Shown here: in pieces, positions 18,071-62,740 of the stretch
Numbering within the stretch: the stretch's first letter is position 1
How the letters are laid out: every line of letters begins with the position of its first letter
Assembly: GCA_040387635.1 (NCBI GenBank)
Contig: JAZKDJ010000001.1
Span: 51,851-115,850, forward strand
Direction: 5' to 3'
From: Patescibacteria group bacterium
GTDB lineage: Bacteria; Patescibacteriota; Minisyncoccia; Phycocordibacterales; PALSA-1337
DNA length: 64,000 nt
Made by a program: the position numbers and the translations under genes
The notes under the pieces: generated by a model
Seen by the model: only the letters and a program-made list of their open reading frames with translations
Database searches by the model: none
Told to the model about the DNA's origin: nothing

Positions 18071-18199
18071 ATTAGCAGAAAACTAGCATACGAGAAAGGA
18101 ATTTGAAATTAACCTGTACAGAAATCATTTTTTATGTTATTAATACCTCCAGATTGAAAACCGCTTCCGCTTACAGCTGAAGCAAACTAAGGAGGATTG

Positions 18200-18781
18200 A
18201 TGGCAGCATTTCCGCCCACTCCCAGGGCAAAAACGGTGGTGGCGCCGCAAAGCTACGACTACATCACGAGCGATACGGGAGCAGGGTCAAAAGCCCGACT
18301 CGAAGTGGCCGAGCAACTCATCACACATCTTGCCCGCGCCAAGCCGCTTGTCTTGTTCCCGCAAGGCTTCGACAAGGATCATATCTACTATCCTTGCCGC
18401 AAGGGAGACATAAGCTTGGGACAAAACCTCGCTGACTATCTCAAGGCACAACCAGGAATGGATGTTGCCGAAATCATCCACGAACCTCGAAGCTGGACCA
18501 CACGGTGGGACATCATAGCCACATACGACATGGTGGCAAAGCAGGGTTACGACATCGCCCACATCCACTTTGTTTCCGACAAGTGCCACATCTGGCGAGT
18601 GAAGATCGTGTGGTGGTTAACCCACCCCAAGGACTGGACGGCGAGTTTCCACTTCACCGACCAATTCCAGATGACTCCATTCGAACGATTTGTACGTGAA
18701 CCAATAGCGTGCGTGGTCTACGCGATCAAGCTGTTGTCCTGGCGGATATTTCACGGACGTCATGTGCCCAGTCACAGTTAA
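18200..18781 (+). CDS. DUF218/YdcF-like protein (GC-rich cassette)
   Basis: The strong SD AAGGAGG lies 5 nt before the ATG at 18200 (the track starts at the TTG at 18197). The YdcF-like pattern is LVLFPQG ... EPRSWTTRWD ... IHFVSDKCHIWRVK (compare VTSxyHmxRA). Confidence 0.45.
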   Translation: MAAFPPTPRAKTVVAPQSYDYITSDTGAGSKARLEVAEQLITHLARAKPLVLFPQGFDKDHIYYPCRKGDISLGQNLADYLKAQPGMDVAEIIHEPRSWTTRWDIIATYDMVAKQGYDIAHIHFVSDKCHIWRVKIVWWLTHPKDWTASFHFTDQFQMTPFERFVREPIACVVYAIKLLSWRIFHGRHVPSHS

Positions 18782-19592: not shown

Positions 19593-20258
19593 TTATTTCA
19601 GCAGCACGAGCAGAGGATGATTCTCTTCGGCCCTGGGGCCATTGAGATATACCCACTGGTCGCGATGCTCGGTTGAAACAAACCTCAACCCATGGTTGCT
19701 GTCGGGATCTTTGATCCACGATTTCGCGAGAGCTGTAATGTCGATATCAACCCACCCTTCTGCCGGCTTCACCGTTGTGAAGTATTCCGAGGAAGGGCGC
19801 ATTGAGAAGCGCATGCGTTCCGCCGTCCAAGACTCACCTGGTGCCTTCTTGATAGGAAGAGGATCCGCCGTCGTTACACGATAGACCTCCATCTTCTTAG
19901 GCATGTCGCGCTTGTCTTTCGAAAGAAAAACTCGCAGTGTCGCGTTAGTGAATTCTGCATTCGACATTGGGAATCTGAAGAAAACTTCGAATTGATCCCC
20001 ATTGCCACCGATCCGAGGTTCGGCAAGCCGGTTGCTGAGCGAATACCAGATGTTGTTGATGCCGCTGATGGGTCGAGACGTTTCACTGTCCACCCACTTT
20101 GGCTTACTGGTATTAATGGTTCGCGTTACCGGAGGTTCACTCGAGGCAACTGTTACCATCACGGCTCCCCAGTCTTCGGTAAGATGGGAAATGGTTTCTG
20201 CTCCTGCTGCCACATAGATGGCAGCAAAGAGCCCTGCAAGGCTCAATAGTTTTTTCAT
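19593..20258 (-). CDS. Secreted DNRLRE/CBM96-like domain protein (GC-rich)
   Basis: Signal peptide MKKLLSLAGLFAAIYVAAGA. Motifs are LSNRLAEPRIGG, FRFPMS...ATLRVFL, WTAERMRF, GWVDIDITALAKSWIKDPDSNHGLRF and NHPLLVLL. Confidence 0.5.
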   Translation of the reverse strand: MKKLLSLAGLFAAIYVAAGAETISHLTEDWGAVMVTVASSEPPVTRTINTSKPKWVDSETSRPISGINNIWYSLSNRLAEPRIGGNGDQFEVFFRFPMSNAEFTNATLRVFLSKDKRDMPKKMEVYRVTTADPLPIKKAPGESWTAERMRFSMRPSSEYFTTVKPAEGWVDIDITALAKSWIKDPDSNHGLRFVSTEHRDQWVYLNGPRAEENHPLLVLLK

Positions 20259-20447: not shown

Positions 20448-22289
20448 ATGAAATACTTCAGAATCATCCTCATGATGGCCCTTCTGGTTAAACCAGAGGT
20501 CGTCGAAAGTCTGCCCGACTTTTCAAAATGGCCTGATCCTAACAAGATCAAGTTTGACGCTGTAGAGCGTGCATACTACGACCACTCCCTTGAAAGCGAG
20601 AACTGGGCAATTGCCACAGTGATCGATTCCACCGGGAGACGCGCGTCGGCTCCAACAAGAATCCCGACCCAAAAGAAACTGGTGATCTCGTTCCACAAGG
20701 ACCTGCAACACCAGAGAAAAGCTTGTGCGGCGATGGCTGGCCTCTATATGACGCATGTCCAACGCAGCACTCGTCGACTCGTACTGATCAACGTCGAACA
20801 GATGCTCAACGAGCAAACTGGCGACAATCGTCAATATCGAGTTTGGCCACATCTCGGACTCATTTTTGTTGGCACAGTCGCAGACGAAGAAGGTTACGAA
20901 GTGGTCATGTGGGATGAGTACGCCGCAGGACCTGCTCCTTTGGAGCACCTCATTCGCCAGGGCGACATCGTCGGCTTAAGTCTCGTTGTTACCGGCATGG
21001 AACGTGGAGTAGCACTGGCTCAGAAAGCAAAAGAGCTTGGCGCGCAGTATGTCATCGCTGGAAATGACTCGGTGATCTTCCGGGCAAATCAGGTGATGGC
21101 ACTTCCCGATCGTCCAATCGACGCAGTTTTCACTGACAACAGCCTCACGGCCGTCCGTCGGTTCTTCCGAGAAATCGGAGAAAATAATATCGCACAGCTT
21201 CAAATCCCTGGTGTTCAAATCACTACAGGAGATGAAGTTCGTTCAAACGAACGTGATCGTCTTCTTGTTGAGCTCAAAACTCGCAAGAATGAAGGTATTA
21301 CAGAAGATGATGTCTTCGTAGTTCCAAAGCTCGAGCTTTATCCTCATTGGGAACAAGTATGGACTAGCTATCGCACAACATTCGGCCACAAGCATTCAAA
21401 CCCTGATACGGTGAAGAATGCTCTTGGGCTTTTTGCCCAGGGATGCACACGCACTCGCGGGAGTGATGTTTGTAGCTACTGCTCAATTGCAGGAGTTGCT
21501 GATGTACGTATTCCCTCAAGGGATATGGTTGCCCGTTCAATAGAAGCTTACAACAACTTCGGTGTGGACATGATGTTCAATGTTACGGACAGCTCCTACG
21601 AAATGCACAAGGTCATCAAGATGCTTCAGGAGCTCGGTGCTTCCTGGAAATCGATGGAGATCTACGGCAGGTCGCAAGGCATTGCCCGTAATCCGCACTT
21701 GCTCGGTGAATGGCAAAAAGTCGCCACGGAGCGATTGCTCATCAATGTCGGAATGGATTCCGGCAGCGACGATATGCTCTTGAAAGGTGTCGTGAAGTCA
21801 TCTATCGAAGGCTGCGGCAGTCGTCTCGAAGAAAACAAAGAGGCGGTCAAGCGCATCCGGCAAGCTGGCGCGCATCTGCATTATTCCCTGATCTTCGGAT
21901 CTCCAGGCGAGTCAAAGGAAACCTGCGAAAGCAGTATCCAATTCCTCGAATGGACAATCGCAGTGCTCGGACACCAGCTCGACATTTGCGAAACGGACAT
22001 TTACTGGCTGAACTTCGGTTCACCGGCAAGTCGTGTGTTCCACGATTACAGTTACGCAGAGCGACTCACAGGAATGGCTGGAAAGTCCATTTCGCAGGAT
22101 GAGTGGCTTCGTGAATTCGTTAGCTACGCCAATACGCTCGTCGTTCCGATGTGTGTTGAGGAATCGTGGTATCGTCACTTCACAAGAATCGATCTTGATA
22201 CGGCGCAGGCTTACAACCAGCGCGCCGCCGAGATTATGGCGAACCACACTGGAAGTATTCGCGGCAGAGCTTTTAGACCGTCGGTTTAG
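20448..22289 (+). CDS. B12-binding-domain / radical-SAM-like enzyme with a non-canonical Cys triad (GC-rich)
   Basis: Rossmann-like B12-type region (GLIFVGTVADEEGYEVVMWDE ... IVGLSLVV ... AKELGAQYVIAGN) followed by GCTRTRGSDVCSYCS (C333-x8-C342-x2-C345) and TIM-barrel-like blocks (LINVGMDSGSDDMLL, HYSLIFGSPGES). Confidence 0.55.
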   Translation: MKYFRIILMMALLVKPEVVESLPDFSKWPDPNKIKFDAVERAYYDHSLESENWAIATVIDSTGRRASAPTRIPTQKKLVISFHKDLQHQRKACAAMAGLYMTHVQRSTRRLVLINVEQMLNEQTGDNRQYRVWPHLGLIFVGTVADEEGYEVVMWDEYAAGPAPLEHLIRQGDIVGLSLVVTGMERGVALAQKAKELGAQYVIAGNDSVIFRANQVMALPDRPIDAVFTDNSLTAVRRFFREIGENNIAQLQIPGVQITTGDEVRSNERDRLLVELKTRKNEGITEDDVFVVPKLELYPHWEQVWTSYRTTFGHKHSNPDTVKNALGLFAQGCTRTRGSDVCSYCSIAGVADVRIPSRDMVARSIEAYNNFGVDMMFNVTDSSYEMHKVIKMLQELGASWKSMEIYGRSQGIARNPHLLGEWQKVATERLLINVGMDSGSDDMLLKGVVKSSIEGCGSRLEENKEAVKRIRQAGAHLHYSLIFGSPGESKETCESSIQFLEWTIAVLGHQLDICETDIYWLNFGSPASRVFHDYSYAERLTGMAGKSISQDEWLREFVSYANTLVVPMCVEESWYRHFTRIDLDTAQAYNQRAAEIMANHTGSIRGRAFRPSV

Positions 22290-48804: not shown

Positions 48805-49560
48805 ATGAGTGACAAAAACTTGAATAAGAATTTGGACGAAGCTCTGCGGAAGATTCGTACGGCGCAGGATAACCTGAAGGCTCATGAGGCAAATCTCAGG
48901 ACGGCGCAGGATGAGCTCAATAAGATCACTACTGAGCAACAACCAACGATCGCCAGCATCATTAAGGAAGGTGGGACCACCGGCGATCCCTTACTGGATG
49001 AGTTCATACCTGCCTTCGGCCTTGATGAAGACTTGTTCTTCAAACTCAAAGAGCTTAGTGATAACCTCCTCATTAAGGGCAAGGGCAAAGAGCTGCTCCT
49101 CAAGGTCTGCTACTCACAAAACATATTTGGCAGTGGTTCTCGCCCTGGCGATTACCACCCTTGCACCGGCTATATCTTGGGAACCCTATCCAGGGAACGC
49201 ATCAAGGTGAAGACCCGGAACGGCGGGATTGTCATTCCCTTCAAGTCCTACGTCATGTGGGGAATGGACAACTTTGCGAATAGCAAATTAAGCGACCGCT
49301 TGTCCGGAGGATTAGAGCTCCATTCATTTTCAAGGCCTTCGAACTACGAACTGCTCCAGAGCCTCAAACCCACTGAACAGGCTTCGACGATGCAGCTTCT
49401 CTCGCTTGAAACAAAAGGCGGAACGGATAAACTCGACATCTTCCTTTGGGAACAAATCAATGCTGAGAGTGAGAAGCCCGTCGTACCACCTGACGAACTC
49501 CAGGCGGCACGTGAAGTCCTTTACAAGGAAGAACAGGTTCCCTTGCTCAGCGAAGCATGA
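48805..49560 (+). CDS. Hypothetical cytoplasmic protein with N-terminal coiled coil (GC-richer orphan)
   Basis: LDEALRKIRTAQDNLKAHEANLRTAQDELNKI followed by a globular region (GSGSRPGDYHPCTGYILG...). It has no TM or signal peptide, and I recognise no family. Confidence 0.45.
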   Translation: MSDKNLNKNLDEALRKIRTAQDNLKAHEANLRTAQDELNKITTEQQPTIASIIKEGGTTGDPLLDEFIPAFGLDEDLFFKLKELSDNLLIKGKGKELLLKVCYSQNIFGSGSRPGDYHPCTGYILGTLSRERIKVKTRNGGIVIPFKSYVMWGMDNFANSKLSDRLSGGLELHSFSRPSNYELLQSLKPTEQASTMQLLSLETKGGTDKLDIFLWEQINAESEKPVVPPDELQAAREVLYKEEQVPLLSEA

Positions 49561-54622: not shown

Positions 54623-56140
54623 ATGGCCCAAAAAACCGCCACAACTCCATTAATTTCCACCCGTCCTCCTGTGATTGTCATCATGGGTCATATTGACCAT
54701 GGTAAATCCACCCTTCTCGACTACATCAGGAAGAGCAATACTACTGCCAAAGAAGCAGGAGGAATCACTCAGCACCTAGGTGCCTACGAAGTTGCGCATA
54801 CTAACCCCCAGGGCAAGAAAGGCACACTTACATTCCTCGATACTCCAGGACACGAGGCATTCTCAGGAATCCGAGCTCGAGGAGCCAAGGTAGCGGATAT
54901 TGCCATCCTCGTCGTTTCAGCAGAAGACGGCGTGAAGCCACAGACTCTCGAAGCTCTCGAGTGTATCAAGGAAGCGAAGCTCCCTTATATAGTAGCTATC
55001 AACAAGATCGACAAGCCGAACGCCAACCCCGAAAAGACAAAACAAAACCTCGCAGAGAATGAGATATACATCGAAGGATACGGAGGAGACGTACCTTGGG
55101 TTCCTGTTTCAGCTCTCACAGGACAAGGCATTCCAGAACTTCTCGACATGGTTATGCTCGTCGCTGAAATAGCTGACCTCAAAGCAGACCTCGCTGCTCC
55201 AGCTCATGGAGTAGTCATCGAAGCGCACCGTGACAACCGCAAAGGTGTCACCGCTACTCTGTTGGTCAAAGAAGGAATACTTAAGAGCGGAGGCTACGTC
55301 GTAGCTGACAACGCTTTCTCGCCTGTAAGAATCTTCGAAGACTTTCAGGGAAAACCTATCAAGGAAGCCAAAGCAGGAAGCCCTTGTCGAGTTATTGGAT
55401 GGTCACTCATTCCAGCAGTAGGCGCACAGTTCTTCGCTTATGAGTCAAAGCGCGACGCTGAAGAAACAGCAAACTCATTCAAGCCAGTAGTACAGAAGGA
55501 TCTTGGTTCAAGACCAAACAACGGTCAGAACGAAAAAATCCTCCTCCCTCTCATCATCAAAGCTGACGCCACAGGAAGCCTCGAAGGTATTCGCCATGAG
55601 TTTGCAAAGATCCAGCACGACAAGGTGGCATTCAAGATCGTTTCAGAAGCAATCGGTAACATCAGTGAAGCTGACCTCAAAGCAGCACAAGGATTACCAA
55701 GCACAATCATCCTTGGATTCAACATCGATATCGATCCAAAAGCAGCATCTATGCTCGAGCGTAACCCGATGAATGTTAAGACGTACAAAATCATCTACGA
55801 ACTAACCGAGTACGCAAAGACAGAACTCATGAAGTTAGTTCCTAAGGAGAAAATCGTTGAGACATTAGGCTCAGCGAAGGTCCAAGCAATCTTCAGCAAG
55901 AACAAGGACAAGCAGATCGTAGGTGGTAAGGTCCAGAAAGACTCCATCATGGTTGGCGCCGAGGTAAAGATCATCCGCCGCGATGCTGAGATCGGCCTTG
56001 GCCGTATCCGAGAGCTTCAGCAGCAGAAAGAAAAAGCTCAGGAAGTGCGCGAGGGATATGAATTCGGAGCAATGCTTGAATCAAAGATCGAAATCGCTCC
56101 AGGCGACAAGATCGAAGCGTTTAGAATTGTAGAAAGATAA
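54623..56140 (+). CDS. infB: Translation initiation factor IF-2 (short form, 505 aa)
   Basis: G-domain motifs [17 protein letters not shown] and NKIDK. There is no long N-terminal region. Confidence 0.95.
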
Positions 56141-56160
56141 ATTATTGTATACTACCAACC

Positions 56161-56505
56161 ATGGCAGACGTAAGAGACAACAGAGATAATAAGATGAAGG
56201 ACGAGGTCAAGCGATTGGCATCGGAGTTTTTGCTGCGTGAGTCAAACTTCACTTCCCTCATCACCATCACTGATGTCAGAATGACTGACCGTGGAAAACA
56301 AGCTCTCATTCTCTTCACTGTCCTTCCTGAGGATAAACAGGATGAGGCGCTTAATTTCCTTAAACGAAAGCGCGCCGAGTTCCGAGATCACGTGATGAAC
56401 GGTTCACGAATTTCACGCGTGCCGTTCTTCGATTTCGATATCGATACAGGTGAAAAGAATCGACAAAAGATCGAGGAGATTTCAATGGAAATCGAAAAAT
56501 CCTAA
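56161..56505 (+). CDS. rbfA: Ribosome-binding factor A
   Basis: 114 aa directly downstream of infB, with the pattern VKRLASEFLLRE...ITITDVRMTDRGKQALILF. Confidence 0.85.
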   Translation: MADVRDNRDNKMKDEVKRLASEFLLRESNFTSLITITDVRMTDRGKQALILFTVLPEDKQDEALNFLKRKRAEFRDHVMNGSRISRVPFFDFDIDTGEKNRQKIEEISMEIEKS

Positions 56506-56529
56506 CGGATCAAGTATAATAGCGAACAA

Positions 56530-56604
56530 GGCCACGTAGAAAAGTGGTAATTCGGAAGTCTGCAAAACTTCTATGCGCGAGTTCGATTCTCGCCGTGGCC
56601 TCCA
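56530..56604 (+). tRNA. tRNA-Cys (anticodon GCA), CCA encoded
   Basis: Acceptor GGCCACG/CGTGGCC, anticodon loop CTGCAAA, T-arm GCGAG-TTCGATT-CTCGC, then TCCA. Confidence 0.9.
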
Positions 56605-56671
56605 TTTCAATCTCTTTCGTCGCCTGTGATCTTTTGCTTTTTTCCTTAATTCAATTAAACTTCTAGTACAT

Positions 56672-56753
56672 GCCCGGGTGGTGGAACTGGTATACACGCA
56701 CGACTTAAAATCGTGTCTCGTAAGGGATGTGGGTTCGATTCCCACCCCGGGCA
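56672..56753 (+). tRNA. tRNA-Leu (anticodon UAA)
   Basis: Acceptor GCCCGGG/CCCGGGC, anticodon stem-loop CACGA-CTTAAAA-TCGTG, a long variable arm, and T-arm GTGGG-TTCGATT-CCCAC. Confidence 0.9.
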
Positions 56754-56842
56754 CAGTCAGACTAACTTGGATAATAAACAGCCTTGTATTGCCCTACCCG
56801 CAAAAATCTGCTACATTGATCCCACTGTTTTTATAGTTGTAT

Positions 56843-56915
56843 GCGCCCATAGCTCAGCTGGTAGAGCACTCGCCTCTTAAGCGATTGGTCGTTGGTTCGA
56901 CTCCAACTGGGCGCA
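56843..56915 (+). tRNA. tRNA-Lys (anticodon CUU)
   Basis: Acceptor GCGCCCA/TGGGCGC, D-arm GCTC-AGCTGGTA-GAGC, anticodon loop CTCTTAA, T-arm GTTGG-TTCGACT-CCAAC. Confidence 0.9.
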
Positions 56916-56933
56916 CAGGAGAAAAATAAATAT

Positions 56934-57016
56934 GCCGGGGTGGCGAAATTGGCAGACGCACTTGCCTTAGGAGCAAGCGGAGTAATCCATGGAGGTTCAA
57001 GTCCTCTCCCCGGCAC
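56934..57016 (+). tRNA. tRNA-Leu (anticodon UAG)
   Basis: Acceptor GCCGGGG/CCCCGGC, anticodon stem-loop CTTGC-CTTAGGA-GCAAG, a long variable arm, and T-arm GGAGG-TTCAAGT-CCTCT. Confidence 0.9.
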
Positions 57017-57026
57017 AATTTGAAAA

Positions 57027-57055
57027 ATACGCCTAAACACAAGCGTATTTTTTAA
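57027..57055 (+). terminator. Terminator of the tRNA cluster
   Basis: AATACGC-ctaaacacaa-GCGTATT followed by TTTTT. Confidence 0.6.
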
Positions 57056-57067
57056 TATACCTAGCTG

Positions 57068-57096
57068 TTGACATAGTATGTATATAGTGCTATAAT
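57068..57096 (+). promoter_or_regulatory. Consensus sigma70 promoter
   Basis: TTGACA (57068-57073), a 17-nt spacer, then TATAAT (57091-57096). A leader of about 120 nt follows. Confidence 0.65.
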
Positions 57097-57219
57097 TATC
57101 ACCAGTAGCTGTAAATCTTGTGCGGAACCGTATTCGGTAATCCGAGAACACTCGAAAGCAGCAAACAGTTTGTTTAGTCGGCACGGAGCCAATTAAACTT
57201 CGACAAAGGGTTAATAAAA

Positions 57220-58524
57220 ATGAAAGTTACGAATCTCAAGGCCGTTGCAACCGCAACTGGCTGGAAACTCACCTTCACACCTCTCGCTGCGCCTACAGCC
57301 ACACCGCCAGCAACCGCAGCTCCGCATAAGTACACTTTGTACCTTTCGGAAAATGCTGACTGGCTCAATAGCTGGCAGGCTGCCGATGCCGGTCTTCGCT
57401 CACAAAGTGTGACCGAAGTGGCAAGAGCAACAAGCAGTGGTGAATTCAACGTCCGTTGGACCAAAGGTCCATTCTTCGCGACTGTCGTCCCGGTGAATCC
57501 GGCGACTGGTGCTGAAGAAGAAGCGGAGACCATCCGCGTTGACGAGCATCCTCAGAACGTGGCACGGAAAAAGAAAATCCGTAACACGTTCTTGTGGGCT
57601 GCAGGCGTCGCTGTGTTGATCATCGCGGCCGTCATCGGAGCTTGGTACCTCTACACAGAGGTCATCAAGCCGAGATCAGCAAGGAAGCAGATCGCCATCA
57701 ATCAGGCGGCGAACACGCCGTACACGGCGGATGCTTCGGTAGCGTCGGACATCGCAGATTCCAGAGCGGCAAATGATGCTCGCATGGATCGAATCGAAGC
57801 CGCACTGCAGGCTCTCATACGACCACCTGCACCTGCCGCCCAGATCCCAACGGATCGTGGACAGCAGGTCTTGGCGCCGCAAGGCAGCCTAGGTTCATTT
57901 GGCACTTCTCCTCATCAGGAAACCCCTGCTACAGGAGTTCGCCATCGAACCATCGCTCACCCGCCGCGCACCGAAAACGGTCGCACCTTCTACCCTGTTA
58001 CTGAACAGGTGGAAGTAACGAGTGAGATCAGCACGCCGGCCGTCGGTGCGCAAGGCAACGTTGGCACGGTTCCTTCAGGAAGCGGTGGGTTGAGTGGTCG
58101 AGTTGATCACTATCACCACTTCGATCCTGTTCAAGGAAACGTCGCTGGCAACCTAGGAATTGCTCCTCGGCAGCCTGCTACGACACGACAACCGGCTGTT
58201 GCGCCTAACGCCCCTACGGCAACGCAACGTCCCAACATCGTGCGCATGCGAAATGAGCCGGCCCTTATCCGCATTGAACCGGGCCAAGAGGTTCGAGTGT
58301 GGAAGGCATCGAATCGGGAACTTCATTTCAGGCCCGAAACGTACAACAATCCCGACCTCCAAATCATGGCAGAAACCAGCACGGGAGAAATCGTGCCGGT
58401 GGAAAATCTGGCCGTGATGCAGGGATCGACGGACAACAGGGTGTCTGCACCTTGGGCAGTGTTCAAAAACAATGGACGCAGCGTGCAAACAGTGCACATC
58501 ACCTACACTGATAAGTACCAGTGA
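57220..58524 (+). CDS. Single-pass membrane protein: beta-rich N-domain, TM, Pro/Ala/Gln-rich linker, beta-rich C-domain (GC-rich)
   Basis: It has no signal peptide. The TM is FLWAAGVAVLIIAAVIGAWYLY, preceded by ARKKKIR. The linker is low complexity (PPAPAAQIPTDRGQQVLAPQG...). I recognise no family. Confidence 0.5.
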   Translation: MKVTNLKAVATATGWKLTFTPLAAPTATPPATAAPHKYTLYLSENADWLNSWQAADAGLRSQSVTEVARATSSGEFNVRWTKGPFFATVVPVNPATGAEEEAETIRVDEHPQNVARKKKIRNTFLWAAGVAVLIIAAVIGAWYLYTEVIKPRSARKQIAINQAANTPYTADASVASDIADSRAANDARMDRIEAALQALIRPPAPAAQIPTDRGQQVLAPQGSLGSFGTSPHQETPATGVRHRTIAHPPRTENGRTFYPVTEQVEVTSEISTPAVGAQGNVGTVPSGSGGLSGRVDHYHHFDPVQGNVAGNLGIAPRQPATTRQPAVAPNAPTATQRPNIVRMRNEPALIRIEPGQEVRVWKASNRELHFRPETYNNPDLQIMAETSTGEIVPVENLAVMQGSTDNRVSAPWAVFKNNGRSVQTVHITYTDKYQ

Positions 58525-58547
58525 AATAACCCTTCAGATCATTCAAG

Positions 58548-58592
58548 AACGCGGCAATCCAAGTGGGTTGTCGCGTTTTCTTCTTGTTTTTT
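58548..58592 (+). terminator. Intrinsic terminator
   Basis: AACGCGGCAA-tccaagtggg-TTGTCGCGTT followed by TTCTTCTTGTTTTTT. Confidence 0.75.
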
Positions 58593-58662
58593 CTTACTTA
58601 TTCTCCTTACCTTTTCATCAAAAATACCCTTATACAGCCACACTTTTACCCTTTTCTATCTA

Positions 58663-58691
58663 TTGACTTTACTCTATAAATATGCTAATAT
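58663..58691 (+). promoter_or_regulatory. Strong sigma70-like promoter (TTGACTTTA type)
   Basis: TTGACT (58663-58668), a 17-nt spacer, then TAATAT (58686-58691). A structured leader of about 147 nt follows. Confidence 0.6.
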
Positions 58692-58844
58692 ATATACAGA
58701 TTGATGGAGCGACTTATTTTTGTAAGGAAGGCTCATTGACATCGTCCACCTACCTGGTGGAAAACAATAACTGCTACGTTTCGGGCAACCGAAGCTAAGC
58801 GCATAACCATCTCCCCTCAAAAGGAGTGGCTAGAAAGCAATTGT

Positions 58845-59915
58845 ATGGCAATGGAGTTTAACTGGGCAGCACTAGGTACTACACCTGGTTCGTCTGCAGC
58901 CACTTCGACACCACGTTCCCCGACCACAGTCGCAGACATCGTAGTTTCCCACGATTCGGAAAATTCGACGCAGGACAGGAGTATGGAAGAAGGTGACGTA
59001 GAGCAGCCGACTAACTACACCCCGTGGAGATGGTTCTTCGGACTAGGGACGATGTTCCTGTGTTTCGTAGTCTCCATGACACTAGTGGTTCTCACCTTCG
59101 GCTTCTTTGGTGCCTCTCCGGAAACAGTGTTGTACTTGTCGATCCTCATTTGGGCCGCTGGGTACTTCCTGTTTATTGGAAAATATGTTTGGCATTACAA
59201 CAAAGGCTACGAGGCTACCGTGATGGAAACATTGACGGGGAAAAAATGGGTTGCGACTCCGGGCATAAGCCCAGGGTATTGGTTCGGTGACAGTCCCGCT
59301 CGCGCTCCGATCCTTCTAAACAAAGAGATCTGCGAGATCAAGCTGGGCGGAACCGAAAAGGAACCTGACGGCAAGGAATTCACCTTGGGCGACAAGACGA
59401 AAGTGGTCATTCTCGCCAAGATTCCCTGTATGCCTAGCCTGCCCTATCTCCTGAACCTTGCGGTTCAGGACCAAGCCACCCTCGAACAGGTCGTCAGCGC
59501 CCACGTGGTGCGACAGATCCAAGAGAGGCTTGGGCACGAAACTGCCGCTACAATCAAGTTTGGCTCTGAAGGCATCGACATGATATACCAAACACTCTAT
59601 AGTTTGTTTCGCGGTCCTAAAGTGCAAACAAATTTTGAGAAGAGAAATGGTATGAACATGCCCGACTACATAGTCAGCCAAGTCAAACAACCAAAGATTG
59701 TGGAAGAGGGTGCACAGACGACCCAGTTGGTCGTTAATGCAGCCAAAGCCATCGCAGCAGCTCGCGCGGCCAATCCTAACATGTCGCAGATAAACGACAG
59801 TGAGATCTTCCGCGAAGCGATGAACATTGAGAAAGCTCAACGGGCAATCTTCTGGGGAGCACCAACTGGCGGAGGCGGCAAAGGCCAAAAAGGTGGCGGC
59901 CGTAAACCAAAGTAA
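58845..59915 (+). CDS. SPFH/band-7-like membrane protein with Gly/Lys-rich tail (GC-rich)
   Basis: Two TMs (FFGLGTMFLCFVVSMTLVVL and VLYLSILIWAAGYFLFI). The SPFH-like pattern is PGISPGYWF...VVILAKIPCMP...LEQVVSAHVVRQIQERLG...GMNMPDYIVSQVKQPKIVEEG. The tail is GGGGKGQKGGGRKPK. Confidence 0.5.
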   Translation: MAMEFNWAALGTTPGSSAATSTPRSPTTVADIVVSHDSENSTQDRSMEEGDVEQPTNYTPWRWFFGLGTMFLCFVVSMTLVVLTFGFFGASPETVLYLSILIWAAGYFLFIGKYVWHYNKGYEATVMETLTGKKWVATPGISPGYWFGDSPARAPILLNKEICEIKLGGTEKEPDGKEFTLGDKTKVVILAKIPCMPSLPYLLNLAVQDQATLEQVVSAHVVRQIQERLGHETAATIKFGSEGIDMIYQTLYSLFRGPKVQTNFEKRNGMNMPDYIVSQVKQPKIVEEGAQTTQLVVNAAKAIAAARAANPNMSQINDSEIFREAMNIEKAQRAIFWGAPTGGGGKGQKGGGRKPK

Positions 59916-59936
59916 CACAACGAAACGGAGGAAATT

Positions 59937-60419
59937 ATGCAGAGTAAAATCAAGAACTTCGGAATAGCAGTCTTTGTCCTTATTCTCGTGGGCTCAACGA
60001 TCTGGTTCATCAGATTCAAGGTCACGAAACATACGGTTGCAGAGACTGCCCAACAGAAACAATCCCCCTTCGTTGACGCGAGGGTGGCACAAGTAGCAGC
60101 AGGGCCGGTGATAACTATGGAGGAACGTACGATTCACATCGGACGCCGTCCTTCAGAACCTATCACAGTGAGCGGTGAGGAAATCCTCATCCACTACTGC
60201 CTCGGTGAGGTAGGTCGGCCGAAACACAGATACCAGGTAAGCGTAGACGGGAGTGAATGGATGACGATGAATCCAGCGTTTGTAGAAGTTACGCCTGAAG
60301 GCAATAGCTTCCAATTCCGCTTGGATCCAGAAGACCCCACGCTCCCCGCCTATGGAACGCTTCGAGTTCGAAAACAACTCAAGCCTTCCAGCGAGCTCAA
60401 CAAGCTCGCTCGCTACTAA
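59937..60419 (+). CDS. Membrane-anchored hypothetical protein (160 aa), co-operonic with the SPFH-like gene
   Basis: SD GGAGG lies 6 nt upstream. N-terminal TM FGIAVFVLILVGSTIWFI and a beta-rich C-domain. Its position resembles an NfeD partner, but I see no sequence support for that. Confidence 0.45.
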   Translation: MQSKIKNFGIAVFVLILVGSTIWFIRFKVTKHTVAETAQQKQSPFVDARVAQVAAGPVITMEERTIHIGRRPSEPITVSGEEILIHYCLGEVGRPKHRYQVSVDGSEWMTMNPAFVEVTPEGNSFQFRLDPEDPTLPAYGTLRVRKQLKPSSELNKLARY

Positions 60420-60477
60420 ACACTCAACAAAAGGAGGACGATAACATAGAACATCGCAAACCGCTTCGGCGGAATGC

Positions 60478-60515
60478 AAAGAGCGACAGCCAAGTGGTTG
60501 TCGCTCTTTTTCATT
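60478..60515. terminator. Terminator shared by the SPFH operon (+) and the pilin-like array (-)
   Basis: AAAGAGCGACA-gccaagtggt-TGTCGCTCTTT followed by TTCATTTC. Confidence 0.7.
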
Positions 60516-60569
60516 TCTATATTTTTTTGTTTTTTTGATTCTCTTGGATTTTCTGAGACTTCCTCCTGC

Positions 60570-60866
60570 TTAGAAATTCACATTCGTACCAATCGTATTT
60601 GCCACAAACCTGATGATTCCATATACAGATGCCATGATAGCCATTCCGATTACCCCCCAGAGAATGTGCTTCTGTCCTGTTGTCCTTCCTTCCGGATCAT
60701 CTGCATGCATGATGAGCTGAAGCATACCCCAAAGGAACACCAGCACGGCCGCTCCAAAAAGTAATGTAACAAGAGGAGCTATGATGTACTGCGACAACTT
60801 GGCAAGCAACGCATCGATTGCTTTCATGTCAGCAGCTGCCAGTGCGACCTTAGGGAATAGAAACAT
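60570..60866 (-). CDS. TrbC/VirB2-like small membrane protein (T4SS-pilin-like), paralog 5
   Basis: Two TMs flank a charged loop: LVFLWGMLQLIMHADDPEGRTTGQKHILWGVIGMAIM. Confidence 0.55.
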   Translation of the reverse strand: MFLFPKVALAAADMKAIDALLAKLSQYIIAPLVTLLFGAAVLVFLWGMLQLIMHADDPEGRTTGQKHILWGVIGMAIMASVYGIIRFVANTIGTNVNF

Positions 60867-60886
60867 AATGAAGTAAAACGTGAGTA

Positions 60887-61255
60887 TTAATCAACGTTAG
60901 GTCGAGTACCGAGAAGGTTATCTACCTTTGGAGTCTTACCCTTGATTGCCCTACCGTCACCGAGGTTAACTACCTTGATAACAAGAGCTACGAGACCCCA
61001 GATCGAGAAGATGACCGCGAGACCAATGACTCCTCGAATGATAATGTCCTTACCCTTGTCCTTTCCGTCGTCACCTCCCGCGATGAGATATCTCACAACA
61101 CCGAAAATCACGTAAATGATTGCGATAGAGATGAGAACGTAGACAAAAAGGTTACCTAGAGCGATTAGACGGTCAGCGAGTGACTGCGCGTCCTCGATCT
61201 GAGCGCTAGCAAAGGCTGGCGCAAAAAACATTAATGATGCAAGTAATTTTTTCAT
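60887..61255 (-). CDS. TrbC/VirB2-like small membrane protein, paralog 4
   Basis: Signal peptide MKKLLASLMFFAPAFASA, TM1, the loop LIAGGDDGKDKGKDII, and TM2 GVIGLAVIFSIWGLV. Confidence 0.6.
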   Translation of the reverse strand: MKKLLASLMFFAPAFASAQIEDAQSLADRLIALGNLFVYVLISIAIIYVIFGVVRYLIAGGDDGKDKGKDIIIRGVIGLAVIFSIWGLVALVIKVVNLGDGRAIKGKTPKVDNLLGTRPNVD

Positions 61256-61353
61256 ATTATTTTAATAAGCACGTTGTGCTAATGAGCATATTGTATCACA
61301 CAGAAACAAGCCAACAATCAGGGCTGTGTATATTTAATAAGGGTTCCTCCTTC

Positions 61354-61803
61354 TTATTTGAAGGTAGTTGGTTGCTTGGTAACACCTCTACTACCTGTCA
61401 GTCTCTGATAGAGCGTAGGCTTACTTACTCCTGCCCCTCCTCCAATTCCAACTGATCCTGTAGGAACGTTGATTCCAGGTGGATTAGTGTTATCGAGGCG
61501 AACTGTATTGATAACGAGATTCACGAGACCCCAGAATGTAAACATAACTGCGAATCCTATAACACTGTACATAACGTACTTTCCTGCTTCAGTTTTGTCT
61601 CCGTCAGCTTTGAAGAAATAGCGGAAGACGTTCCAGATGAATAGGAGGACGGCAAGCGCCATAATGAAATAGATGGCCAAGTTGAAATACTCAAGAACGA
61701 GTCCAACAAGTTCGCTTAGGTTGCCGACAGCTAAAGTGATGACAGGAAAAGCAGTGGCTGCGACGACGATGCTCCCTTTGACTACGCTTGGTTTGATATT
61801 CAT
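61354..61803 (-). CDS. TrbC/VirB2-like small membrane protein, paralog 3
   Basis: N-terminal signal/anchor, TM, the loop FKADGDKTEAGKYVM, TM SVIGFAVMFTFWGLV, and a Gly-rich tail. Confidence 0.6.
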   Translation of the reverse strand: MNIKPSVVKGSIVVAATAFPVITLAVGNLSELVGLVLEYFNLAIYFIMALAVLLFIWNVFRYFFKADGDKTEAGKYVMYSVIGFAVMFTFWGLVNLVINTVRLDNTNPPGINVPTGSVGIGGGAGVSKPTLYQRLTGSRGVTKQPTTFK

Positions 61804-61845
61804 AAATTTAATAACGAGGTAATGAGACTATTATACTACCTTATG

Positions 61846-62310
61846 CTACTTACCTAGCAGCCCAGTATCCACAAACGGACTGAGGGTTGCCTTGATGATC
61901 TGAACGATGATTTCAGCTCCGAAGAGTATAGCAATACCTATGATGACGTAGAAAAAATGCTTGCGCGCATCAGAAATTTTATCTGAATTACCTTGAGCAA
62001 CGATGAATTGGAAGCCTACCCAAAGGAGAGCAAGGAAAGCAATGATCACTCCTATCTTGATGGCGACACTTACGATATCCACCATGAGCTCCTCAATACT
62101 ATCGGACTTAAGTGGGTTCTGAAGAACGGCTCGAGAAGCTGCCTCAGGCTTCCCTCCTGATGGATTGCCGGCAGCTCCCCCTGAAGGGTTACCTGCAGCT
62201 CCTCCACTCACTCCAGTTGTTGGCTGCGCGAACGTTACTGGCGCTATTGAGAAAGCAAGAATGATGAGCAGGAACGCACACGAAACTATTTTTGCGATTG
62301 TAATTTTCAT
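61846..62310 (-). CDS. TrbC/VirB2-like small membrane protein, paralog 2
   Basis: Signal peptide ending PVTFA, the repeat GGAAGNPSGGAAGNPSGG, TM, the loop AQGNSDKISDARKHF, and TM YVIIGIAILFGA. Confidence 0.6.
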   Translation of the reverse strand: MKITIAKIVSCAFLLIILAFSIAPVTFAQPTTGVSGGAAGNPSGGAAGNPSGGKPEAASRAVLQNPLKSDSIEELMVDIVSVAIKIGVIIAFLALLWVGFQFIVAQGNSDKISDARKHFFYVIIGIAILFGAEIIVQIIKATLSPFVDTGLLGK

Positions 62311-62311
62311 A

Positions 62312-62740
62312 TTATTTTTTCAAAAGCGATGTAAATGCCGAGTCGTCTTTGCCTATAAGCGTCACTATTGTGTATACAATAAACCAAGCACATAGCATCA
62401 GCACCATGCCCAGGATCACGTGACCGAAAATCCCTTTTGCCTTATTGATATTAGATTCAACACCCGTCACATACAAGAATCCAGCATATGTGAAGAGAAT
62501 AATGGAAACAGCCCCAGCAATGGCGAAGAGCCACTTGATCAAATACTGAATACTCTCTACAAGTGTGTCGAAGTTACACTTCTTCTGTGTAGCAGTAGAA
62601 GATGTGCCACTTGTCACTCCATCACATTGAACCAGCCCTTTGTATTGCGCATGCACAGGCTGAGGCATGACTTGGAACATCGATACCCCAATGAAGAGCG
62701 CTACGACCGATGCAACGAAAAAGTTAAAAGCTGGTTTCAC
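62312..62740 (-). CDS. TrbC/VirB2-like small membrane protein, paralog 1
   Basis: Signal peptide, TM, the loop VTGVESNINKAKGIF, and TM HVILGMVLMLCAWFIV. Confidence 0.6.
   Translation of the reverse strand: MKPAFNFFVASVVALFIGVSMFQVMPQPVHAQYKGLVQCDGVTSGTSSTATQKKCNFDTLVESIQYLIKWLFAIAGAVSIILFTYAGFLYVTGVESNINKAKGIFGHVILGMVLMLCAWFIVYTIVTLIGKDDSAFTSLLKK

Follow-up and report, generated by a model that had tools for sequence, protein, structure and literature searches.

Introduction

The SPFH-NfeD operons, as for example PH1511-PH1510 of Pyrococcus or QmcA-YbbJ of E. coli, are among the described systems that come close to the locus presented here. The operon partner of stomatin has been described as an OB-fold scaffold (PMC4208085). 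In Patescibacteria, VirB2-like T4SS_pilin genes form arrays of 2-11 genes with low identity between the copies and were reported to be essential in one cultured relative, while an adjacent SPFH gene is not mentioned in the same paper (PMC12102498). For accessory divergent SPFH paralogues of bacteria, e.g. PaFlo3-9 of P. aeruginosa, marked sequence divergence and genomic variability are described in the available part of the source (PMC13086221).

The locus comprises about 3.5 kb between a tRNA cluster and a pilin array in a patescibacterial stretch of DNA of 64,000 nucleotides, called the window in the following. The first-pass annotation, based on the letters alone, had proposed an integrated island consisting of an orphan membrane protein (ORF A) and an SPFH-like protein with an anchored partner (ORFs B and C).

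Results and Discussion

Organisation of the locus

The following features were determined, with positions referring to the window:

56530..57016, + strand: four-tRNA cluster, left border of the slot (ARAGORN; Rfam tRNA matches of 55-70 bits)
56530-56604, + strand: tRNA-Cys(gca) (ARAGORN, Rfam)
56672-56754, + strand: tRNA-Leu(taa) (ARAGORN, Rfam)
56843-56916, + strand: tRNA-Lys(ctt) (ARAGORN, Rfam)
56934-57016, + strand: tRNA-Leu(tag) (ARAGORN, Rfam)
57020..57055, + strand: AT-rich hairpin with T-run, likely terminator of the tRNA transcript (inverted repeat, 13-nt arms, 92% complementary)
57068..57096, + strand: promoter-like site of unit 1, TTGACA-17-TATAAT with extended -10 TG (12/12 consensus match)
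57220..58524, + strand: ORF A, orphan single-pass membrane protein, 434 aa (ORF and hydropathy)
58546..58592, + strand: terminator of unit 1, intrinsic type (terminator with 15-bp stem at 58546-58579, T-rich tail)
58663..58691, + strand: promoter-like site of unit 2, TTGACT-17-TAATAT with TG (9/12 match)
58698..58844, + strand: predicted 5' leader of unit 2, about 147 nt, several hairpins (MFE -43.9 kcal/mol, z = -2.4)
58845..59915, + strand: ORF B, 356 aa, by position a probable hyper-diverged SPFH-family scaffold, by sequence an orphan
59937..60419, + strand: ORF C, 160 aa, N-terminally anchored partner with beta-rich C-domain (21-nt spacer from the stop of B, GGAGG ribosome-binding site)
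60478..60509, no strand: hairpin between the convergent units, likely bidirectional terminator (14-15-bp stem flanked by A-run and T-run)
60570..62740, - strand: five VirB2-like T4SS_pilin genes, right border of the slot (PF18895, 32-36 bits)

All elements named by the first-pass annotation, i.e. the tRNA cluster, the TTGACA-17-TATAAT promoter, the three ORFs, the leader and the likely terminator after tRNA-Leu, were found to be present. Since promoter-like sites are no more frequent in the region as a whole than in its shuffles, the site of unit 1 is addressed as a putative promoter, despite its full consensus. At the SPFH genes of related genomes (see below) the same type of site as in unit 2 was observed, TTGAC-17-TGnTATAAT. 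The leader of unit 2 does fold as had been claimed, but with a z of -2.4 it is only modestly structured, and no Rfam family matched it; the leaders of the relatives' SPFH genes are also rich in hairpins (mean z -2.3). The terminators of unit 1 and after C share a 15-16-nt core, CCAAGTGG(G)TTGTCGC, which is absent elsewhere in the window. The hairpin at 60478..60509 separates C on the + strand from the pilin array on the - strand, where all 5/5 genes scored above the gathering score of PF18895 (26.6).

Conservation of the slot

The order infB-rbfA-tRNA(Cys,Leu,Lys,Leu)-slot-pilin array-SBP is kept in about 30 genomes of Paceibacteria/Parcubacteria, with infB identities of only 44-56% to the infB of the window. 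The same four tRNAs 3' of rbfA constitute a conserved left border and arrays of 5-8 T4SS_pilin genes a conserved right border, and the slot between them is conserved across a large Paceibacteria/Parcubacteria clade. In nearly all of these genomes the slot carries a gene pair on the + strand. Gene 1 encodes a protein of 314-478 aa with one or more N-terminal TM segments, while gene 2 encodes a TM-anchored partner and overlaps gene 1 or starts within about 20 nt of it, i.e. is coupled. Position and operon partner of B are thus those of the Band_7 family members in the related genomes. Where the first-pass annotation had suggested checking whether the relatives' tRNA cluster is followed directly by the pilin array, the slot turned out to be mostly filled by the gene pair and to be empty in one locus (L055).

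Gene 1 of the relatives is a true SPFH/Band_7 protein. It matched Pfam Band_7 with 32-43 bits, above the gathering score of 23.6, and its family profile matched the PH stomatin structure (5.6e-18), human stomatin (8e-14), QmcA (1e-13) and HflK (3e-13). With this profile, gene 1 was found adjoining the pilin array in most array-bearing loci and in 10 further metagenome loci. The slot of the clade would accordingly read infB, rbfA, tRNA(Cys,Leu,Lys,Leu), one or more variable genes, SPFH gene with coupled anchored partner, convergent VirB2-like pilin array and SBP.

Exceptions were also observed. In two loci (L044 and L046) the pair is another one, which is not Band_7, and in a third (L036) there is a single non-SPFH gene with 4 TM segments. 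Together with the empty slot of L055, this indicates that a swap for unrelated genes does occur.

Base composition and the question of an island

The claim that A, B and C are GC-richer than their flanks proved correct. Compared to 0.456 +/- 0.024 for the 48 other ORFs of the window, GC amounts to 0.564 in A, 0.517 in B and 0.513 in C, corresponding to z-scores of 4.6, 2.6 and 2.4, while the GC3 z-scores are merely 1.5-1.9 and four other window ORFs lie at 0.50-0.54 GC. The GC3 of B (0.583) and C (0.559) exceeds that of housekeeping genes (0.445), and the relatives show the same tendency, with an increase of 9.2 points for the SPFH gene (p 3.5e-4) and of 15.6 points for the partner (p 1.7e-5). 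Raised GC characterises the module throughout the clade, where it is accompanied by extreme sequence turnover; it is not a sign of recent arrival in this genome.

This bears directly on the proposal that the whole 3.5 kb are a recently integrated, horizontally acquired island targeting the tRNA cluster. The position next to the tRNAs, the raised GC, above all that of A, and the orphan status of all three genes would fit such an event, as would the terminator core shared by the two units, which could mean a common foreign origin or a local duplication. Nevertheless, we consider this explanation very unlikely, since an equivalent pair fills the same slot in about 30 relatives, the GC/GC3 shift is common to them and only modest in GC3 here, and the marks of integration are missing: as the first-pass annotation had stated, there is no integrase domain in A, B or C (Pfam) and no att-like direct repeat of the tRNA-Leu sequence within 56000-62000. 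Likewise, A, B and C contain no recombinase domain, and no integrase or recombinase was found among the slot genes of the relatives. Absence at the same site in relatives, as expected of an island, was observed for A and not for B-C. For B-C a recent island was therefore rejected, given the equivalent pair in the same slot of about 30 distant genomes, and with it the suggested tRNA-proximal integration of this pair; for A alone, an island origin is possible.

ORF A

ORF A comprises a beta-looking N-domain (residues 1-115), a TM segment at about 120-142, a low-complexity spacer rich in Ala, Pro, Thr and Gln (about 145-335) and a beta-looking C-domain (336-434). The family search gave no match, a comparison with 5.8 billion clusters returned only A itself, contigs of phages, plasmids and viruses yielded nothing similar, which speaks against an island as well, and none of 161 related loci contains a counterpart. 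A occurs in this lineage only, and the sub-slot that it occupies is filled differently from genome to genome. The three genes, whose co-occurrence the first-pass annotation had suggested to analyse, are not conserved as a trio. Altogether, A would be an envelope protein that crosses the membrane once, a lineage-specific orphan in the variable sub-slot, separate from B-C and equipped with a consensus promoter and a terminator of its own.

ORF B and its relation to the SPFH family

ORF B (354 aa with start at 58851 in the NCBI call) comprises an acidic, disordered N-terminus, a TM hairpin formed by two hydrophobic segments (residues 60-92 and 93-116), a soluble domain and a Gly/Lys tail, GGGGKGQKGGGRKPK. 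No homologue was found among 1.84 billion representative proteins, searched exhaustively with HMMER, no Band_7 (PF01145) or other Pfam match at E <= 1, no SPFH chain among PDB sequences at E <= 10 and no match in NCBIfam; in fact, none of A, B and C has a detectable homologue in any library searched. The single-sequence AlphaFold model of B is unusable as a whole (pLDDT 46). The TM hairpin is clear (pLDDT 74-87 over residues 61-110), and the strand-then-helices pattern of the soluble part, where pLDDT is below 50, is merely suggestive.

In a comparison by hhalign with a profile of 23 SPFH sequences, taken from Band_7 genes at the same position in relatives, B scored 37.0 and ranked first among 51 window proteins, the other 50 reaching 14.7 +/- 3.1 with a maximum of 24.8 (P 1e-4 to 4e-4, probability 35-77% for B). 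With a 37-sequence profile this signal was not reproduced (P 0.1), and subfamily profiles matched only the TM region. Compared to shuffles, the soluble part of B gave z-scores of 6.3 (local) and 6.0 (global). The profile similarity of B to SPFH proteins is hence weak and depends on the alignment. The match to the 23-sequence profile falls on the SPFH entry motif, whose distance from the preceding TM hairpin is correct in B. Furthermore, a short tail rich in Gly and Lys closes most proteins of the SPFH family, and the AIFWGAP/Gly-Lys tail of B resembles it. B agrees with the relatives' SPFH gene in this tail and the entry motif as well as in TM hairpin, size and position. The description of B as SPFH-like is thus supported indirectly, through its positional relatives, which hit Band_7 and match stomatin, QmcA and HflK; B itself gave no Band_7 hit.

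The missing hit can be explained by the divergence of the family. Mean pairwise identity is 16% for the SPFH proteins, compared to about 50% for infB, and even genome pairs with 60-74% infB identity share only 13-23% SPFH identity; at an infB distance of 56%, an unrecognisable B is therefore expected. The identity between SPFH proteins does not follow the phylogeny of infB (Spearman -0.02); one pair, L023-L051, is discordant, with 51% SPFH at 57% infB identity, compared to 23% SPFH at 74% infB identity for L023-L027.

The same data could result from a non-homologous replacement, in which the slot serves as a swap site, an unrelated membrane cassette of two genes took the place of the ancestral SPFH-partner operon in this lineage, and the likeness of B-C in size and topology is coincidental or convergent. 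B and C being complete orphans, the fragile profile similarity, the unrelated or missing occupants in four loci and the lack of infB tracking are in agreement with this. It is opposed by the first rank of B with the match on the canonical entry motif, by hairpin anchor, length, Gly/Lys tail and coupled anchored partner, all as in the family, and by the promoter with leader and the GC3 shift, which match the family as well. Weighing both sides, we regard a replacement as possible, but doubtful. We infer instead a homology of B and C to the SPFH-partner module and, with modest confidence, prefer the reading that B-C is probably the local, hyper-diverged version of this operon, A an additional orphan and the segment a copy of the conserved slot.

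ORF C and the partner genes

C is translationally coupled to B, starting 21 nt after its stop with a GGAGG ribosome-binding site. Its single-sequence AlphaFold model is beta-rich and unusable (pLDDT 47), and as an orphan it shows just a hint of similarity to the C-terminal domain of the relatives' partner (z 3.5, HMM E 0.73, global alignment not significant). With its N-terminal TM segment, small beta-rich C-domain and operon with a putative SPFH gene, C has the layout of a short NfeD, which raises the question of a canonical SPFH-NfeD pair, where an OB-fold domain of C would bind the SPFH ring as in PH1511/PH1510. This we hold for highly improbable: PF01957 matched neither C, as the first-pass annotation had noted, nor any of 13 partner proteins of relatives, and what the large partners of the relatives show instead is a lysozyme-like motif, E-S...G-x-x-Q-I-N, together with a C-terminal domain of a distinct kind. 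The additional argument of a reversed gene order is weak, since SPFH-then-NfeD is also known, e.g. from E. coli qmcA-ybbJ.

Possible role of the module

For the homologous SPFH-partner operon preferred here, transcription would start at its own strong sigma-70 promoter and pass the hairpin-rich leader. Held in the membrane by its hairpin, B would form oligomers, as a ring or cage of the SPFH type, and in this way corral or regulate client proteins of the membrane, with C as the obvious candidate.

A more far-reaching idea is that the tRNA-array site is a dedicated diversification hotspot across Paceibacteria, at which the SPFH-partner cassette is continually replaced or recombined, A, B and C being its products. 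Turnover would then drive the cassette past sequence recognition and lift its GC3, e.g. by GC-biased gene conversion, while the flanks evolve normally. At the cell surface in contact with the host, the three proteins would work together with the pilin array, and the frequent lysozyme-like domain of the partner would mean a role in cell-wall remodelling. We rate this idea as speculative and rather unlikely. Hypervariable content, membrane proteins and a variable slot could also point to a variable hotspot occupied by a cassette for anti-phage defence or toxins. However, PADLOC matched neither A, B and C nor seven proteins of the relatives, no nuclease, ATPase or other effector domain was found, and the module recurs almost universally at one fixed position instead of being patchy, which makes such a cassette extremely improbable.

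In host-dependent bacteria with genomes as tiny as those of Patescibacteria, genes that stay in one place throughout the class probably matter. The SPFH operon is retained next to the pilin arrays, has diverged fast enough to turn into an orphan and is persistently raised in GC3, which makes it a candidate for a module of the envelope or the host interface. Being convergent with the pilin array here, it is not co-transcribed with it, and any functional link between both is putative. For this window a false island call is removed; beyond it, "orphan" genes of Patescibacteria lineages can be given an annotation through their conserved position, and the operon is naturally suited for testing composition shifts driven by recombination in reduced genomes.

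Comparison with known systems

With tRNA-linked genomic islands the locus shares the position directly after a tRNA gene, the atypical base composition and the orphan genes; it differs in the absence of integrase and att duplication, the conservation of slot and occupants and a composition shift common to relatives. The five-gene pilin array belongs to the published class of VirB2-like arrays (PMC12102498).

SPFH-NfeD operons resemble the module in combining an anchored scaffold with a small anchored partner carrying a beta-rich C-domain, and gene 1 of the relatives is a true Band_7 protein whose profile matches PH stomatin, QmcA and HflK. Differences are the failure of B against the Band_7 model, the lack of an NfeD match in C and the relatives' partners, the lysozyme-like domain of many of these partners, and the hypervariability and GC3 shift of the module. 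SPFH divergence together with genomic variability is shared with paralogues of the PaFlo3-9 type, as far as described in the available part of the source (PMC13086221). Compared to what is given there, the locus presented here comprises a single module that keeps its syntenic position throughout a whole class, with a divergence past profile detectability and a consistent rise in GC3.

Organization of the segment behind the tRNA cluster

Three plus-strand orphan open reading frames, here termed A, B and C, occupy the site between a cluster of four tRNA genes and five T4SS_pilin (PF18895) genes that form a convergent array. A 9.7-kb Logan contig identical to the locus exists. The segment comprises the following features:

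54623-56140: infB, encoding a 505-aa short IF-2
56530-57016: tRNA cluster Cys, Leu-taa, Lys-ctt and Leu-tag, following infB and rbfA
57020-57055: AT-rich hairpin
57068-57096: promoter-like TTGACA-17-TATAAT with TG upstream, 12/12 match
57220-58524, plus strand: ORF A, 434 aa, with a single hydrophobic segment at about residues 120-142
58546-58579: strong terminator after A
58663-58691: second promoter-like site
Directly before B: leader of about 147 nt, with a modest fold z of -2.4 against shuffles
58845-59915, plus strand: ORF B, 356 aa, two hydrophobic segments (residues 60-92 and 93-116), tail GGGGKGQKGGGRKPK
59937-60419, plus strand: ORF C, 160 aa, with an N-terminal TM, a GGAGG site and a start 21 nt past the B stop
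60478-60509: hairpin facing the convergent pilin array

Since the tRNAs, promoters, reading frames, terminators and GC enrichment were all recovered, the description of this segment in the first-pass annotation is accurate. The short IF-2 begins nearly at the G domain, and the infB products of the fetched relatives align with it over almost its full length. A search of the leader before B against Rfam matched no family, and a riboswitch at this point was rejected accordingly.

The terminators after A (58559-58574) and C (60490-60504) comprise a common core of 15-16 nt, CCAAGTGG(G)TTGTCGC, for which the chance expectation is zero copies. No further copy was found elsewhere in the window, nor in any of the remaining loci that were fetched. 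The common core hints at a local duplication when the unit of A and its promoter arose.

Based on its length and its signals, which comprise the perfect promoter, an AAGGG 10 nt upstream and the strong terminator, A is a real gene. It showed no relatives anywhere searched, including phage and plasmid records, and no similarity to B. A relation to C was rejected after comparison, and no relation of its domains to the SPFH or partner profiles described below was found. A DUF5803 match (E 0.007) was under the cutoff and spans the TM segment, and was therefore dismissed, while a viral-contig match of 18 residues was judged spurious. A is predicted to be an independent orphan envelope protein.

Searches of all three proteins against Pfam, PHROGs, NCBIfam and PADLOC gave nothing at meaningful thresholds, and comparison with PDB sequences was likewise without a significant match. 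In three word-indexed searches of 5.8 billion protein clusters each protein matched only itself, as did B when 1.84 billion representatives were scanned exhaustively with HMMER. B has no sequence relative in the PDB, and jackhmmer with A, B and C against all reading frames from 161 loci found no homologue. Since the trio is orphan in all libraries, these searches yield no direct evidence for SPFH or NfeD. AlphaFold models from single sequences reached a pLDDT of 46 for B and 47 for C and were unusable.

The same position in related genomes

Via infB, 80 genome and 80 metagenome loci were fetched. The closest relatives are distant, as scans of genome and metagenome contigs for closer ones found no infB identity beyond 56-63%. 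About 30 loci keep the order ClpB, hypothetical gene, NifS, infB, rbfA, the same four tRNAs, a gap of 1.1-3.7 kb, 5-8 pilin genes arrayed on the minus strand, and SBP_bac_8. In nearly all of them the gap holds a plus-strand gene pair. The first gene encodes 314-478 aa with one or more hydrophobic segments at the N-terminus, and the second a membrane-anchored partner of 139-398 aa, which overlaps the first gene or begins at most about 20 nt away.

Several of the first genes pass the Pfam gathering score for Band_7 (23.6) with 32-43 bits; the gene of locus L045 matches below the threshold. A profile of 23 first-gene proteins matches PH stomatin (5.6e-18), human stomatin, QmcA, HflK/C, flotillins and prohibitins. 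With the family profile, a member was found beside the array in most pilin-array genome loci and in 10 more metagenome loci. Two loci carry a common non-Band_7 pair of membrane proteins different from the usual one (L044:13944-15815 and L046:15019-17015), one carries a single 4-TM gene (L036:7088-8032), and in another (L055:13753-13935) the tRNAs and the pilin array are 182 nt apart, with no SPFH gene.

A separate TTGAC-17-TGnTATAAT promoter and a leader rich in hairpins precede almost all SPFH genes (24 loci, upstream 150 nt; for example L051:14622-14776, L061:12225-12379 and L023:10844-10998). The mean fold z of the leaders is -2.3, with 13 of 24 under -2, some of these upstream stretches overlapping the tRNA or an upstream terminator. 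The sequence of the hairpins is not conserved across the 24 loci.

Between tRNA-Leu(tag) and the first gene of the pair, some genomes contain extra genes that vary between genomes, namely a TrhO-like rhodanese, PAP2 and unknown small reading frames. The TrhO-like protein (UPF0176_N, Rhodanese, Rhodanese_C) is encoded on the minus strand (L028:13032-14126, L044:12808-13845 and L046:13816-14877). A lies in this variable position.

Probable relationship of B to the SPFH family

B agrees with the SPFH family in position, length and its coupled anchored partner, and also in its own promoter of the TTGAC-17-TGnTATAAT type with a hairpin-rich leader. The N-terminal TM hairpin of B is present in about half of the family, and its Gly/Lys-rich tail after a hydrophobic "AIFWGAP" stretch recurs in many members. 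About 26 residues past the second TM, SPGYWFGDSPARAPILLNKEICEIKLGG resembles the SPFH entry motif, which reads KPGWRYIPFGFCDVVRETRNIIEKDIP in L040 and EPGWRIVIPIFQSYRKVDMRVKAVDVP in L084. This entry-like motif is the stretch aligned by hhalign with the 23-sequence profile (P 1e-4 to 4e-4). Against the same profile B scored 37.0, compared to 14.7 +/- 3.1 (maximum 24.8) for 50 other window proteins, and its soluble part gave a z of about 6 against shuffles in local and global mode alike.

On the other side, the signal of B drops to noise with a 37-sequence profile, the matches of subfamily profiles are confined to the TM hairpin, and HMMER family profiles do not reach B. The main rival explanation is that B and C are a non-homologous replacement of the operon in the lineage of the window. 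Because the evidence is mixed, homology of B to the SPFH family is rated as probable.

The orphan status of B is to be expected from the extreme divergence of the family. The mean pairwise identity is 16% for the SPFH proteins, compared to 50% for infB, 68% for ClpB and 38% for SBP, and SPFH identity is merely 13-23% in genome pairs with an infB identity of 60-74%. While rbfA, ClpB, SBP and NifS track infB (Spearman 0.45-0.58), SPFH identity does not (-0.02), although saturation is able to flatten this correlation. The large partner family tracks infB with 0.56. Loci L023 and L051 show 51% SPFH identity at 57% infB identity, whereas L023 and L027 show 23% at 74%; this discordance suggests cassette exchange or extreme diversification. 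Altogether, the best-supported reading is that B and C represent a hyper-diverged local version of the clade-wide SPFH-partner operon.

The partner gene and C

The large partners, as aligned in L017:14863-15960, L040:15157-16308, L034:6658-7788, L020:14080-15192 and L051:15766-16962, begin with TMs, after which a central block shows the lysozyme-like pattern E-S-G-x-N-Q ... G-V-M-Q-I-N ... W, in its fuller form C/R-E-S-G-x-N-Q ... D-x-G-V-M/F-Q-I-N ... W ... E-G-N. This block matches C-type lysozymes weakly (PDB E 0.13; Pfam Lys E 0.079). The C-terminus of the same large partners is formed by a beta-looking domain, "AP-x-G-x-W-S-E ... F-Q-F", which some small partners (L024, L067 and L069) have as well.

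C has no lysozyme-like block, and its assignment to the large partners was rejected, the alignment comparison being not significant. Against the profile of the partner C-terminal domain, C gave a local z of 3.5, while the global alignment was not significant; it ranked second among the non-training reading frames (3453 in total) with an E of 0.73. These values are only suggestive of C carrying this domain.

Composition and the question of integration

The GC content is 0.564 for A, 0.517 for B and 0.513 for C, compared to 0.456 +/- 0.024 for 48 other window reading frames. Further reading frames with raised GC (0.50-0.54; GC3 0.54-0.65) lie at 18197-18781, 19593-20258, 20448-22289 and 48805-49560. 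The high GC of A is partly compositional (Ala 14%, Thr 9%, Pro 8%; GC2 0.52), and its GC3 has a z of only 1.5. For B and C, GC3 is 0.583 and 0.559, compared to 0.445 for the housekeeping genes of the window.

In 23 relatives, the mean GC excess over the own locus is 4.2 points for the SPFH gene and 6.8 points for the partner (20 of 23 each). Compared to flanking housekeeping genes, GC3 is raised by 9.2 points in the SPFH gene (18 of 23, p 3.5e-4) and by 15.6 points in the partner (21 of 23, p 1.7e-5); examples are L035:13920-15765, L020:12998-15192 and L029:12814-14387, together with 58845-60419 in the window. The pilin genes of the relatives showed no GC3 shift (+2.1, p 0.17). As a possible origin of the shift, a recombination hotspot with GC-biased gene conversion is one idea, and it would also fit the turnover in sequence.

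The first-pass annotation had considered an island integrated next to the tRNA cluster and had noted the raised GC. Since the module of the relatives comprises the same rise in GC and GC3, a compositional argument for recent integration fails for B and C. As already noted there, att-like repeats are absent, and no integrase was found among the extra genes of the relatives. The island is poorly supported. The part most worth following is the clade-wide, hypervariable, GC3-shifted module.

Comparison with known systems

VirB2-like pilin arrays have been described (PMC12102498), in a paper that does not mention SPFH genes. The SPFH-partner operon is convergent with such an array, and from this synteny a functional link between the two is possible.

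A canonical SPFH-NfeD pair finds little support, since neither C nor the partner of any genome tested matched NfeD, in line with the missing NfeD signature reported earlier for C. If B and C are a version of the SPFH-partner operon, B would be expected to assemble into an oligomeric scaffold bound to the membrane, with C as its likely client. The structures of stomatin, QmcA and HflK/C are well established, and the proposed scaffold draws on them. With their lysozyme-like motif, the large partners are putative muramidases anchored in the membrane, and the coupling of such a gene to an SPFH gene appears undescribed so far.
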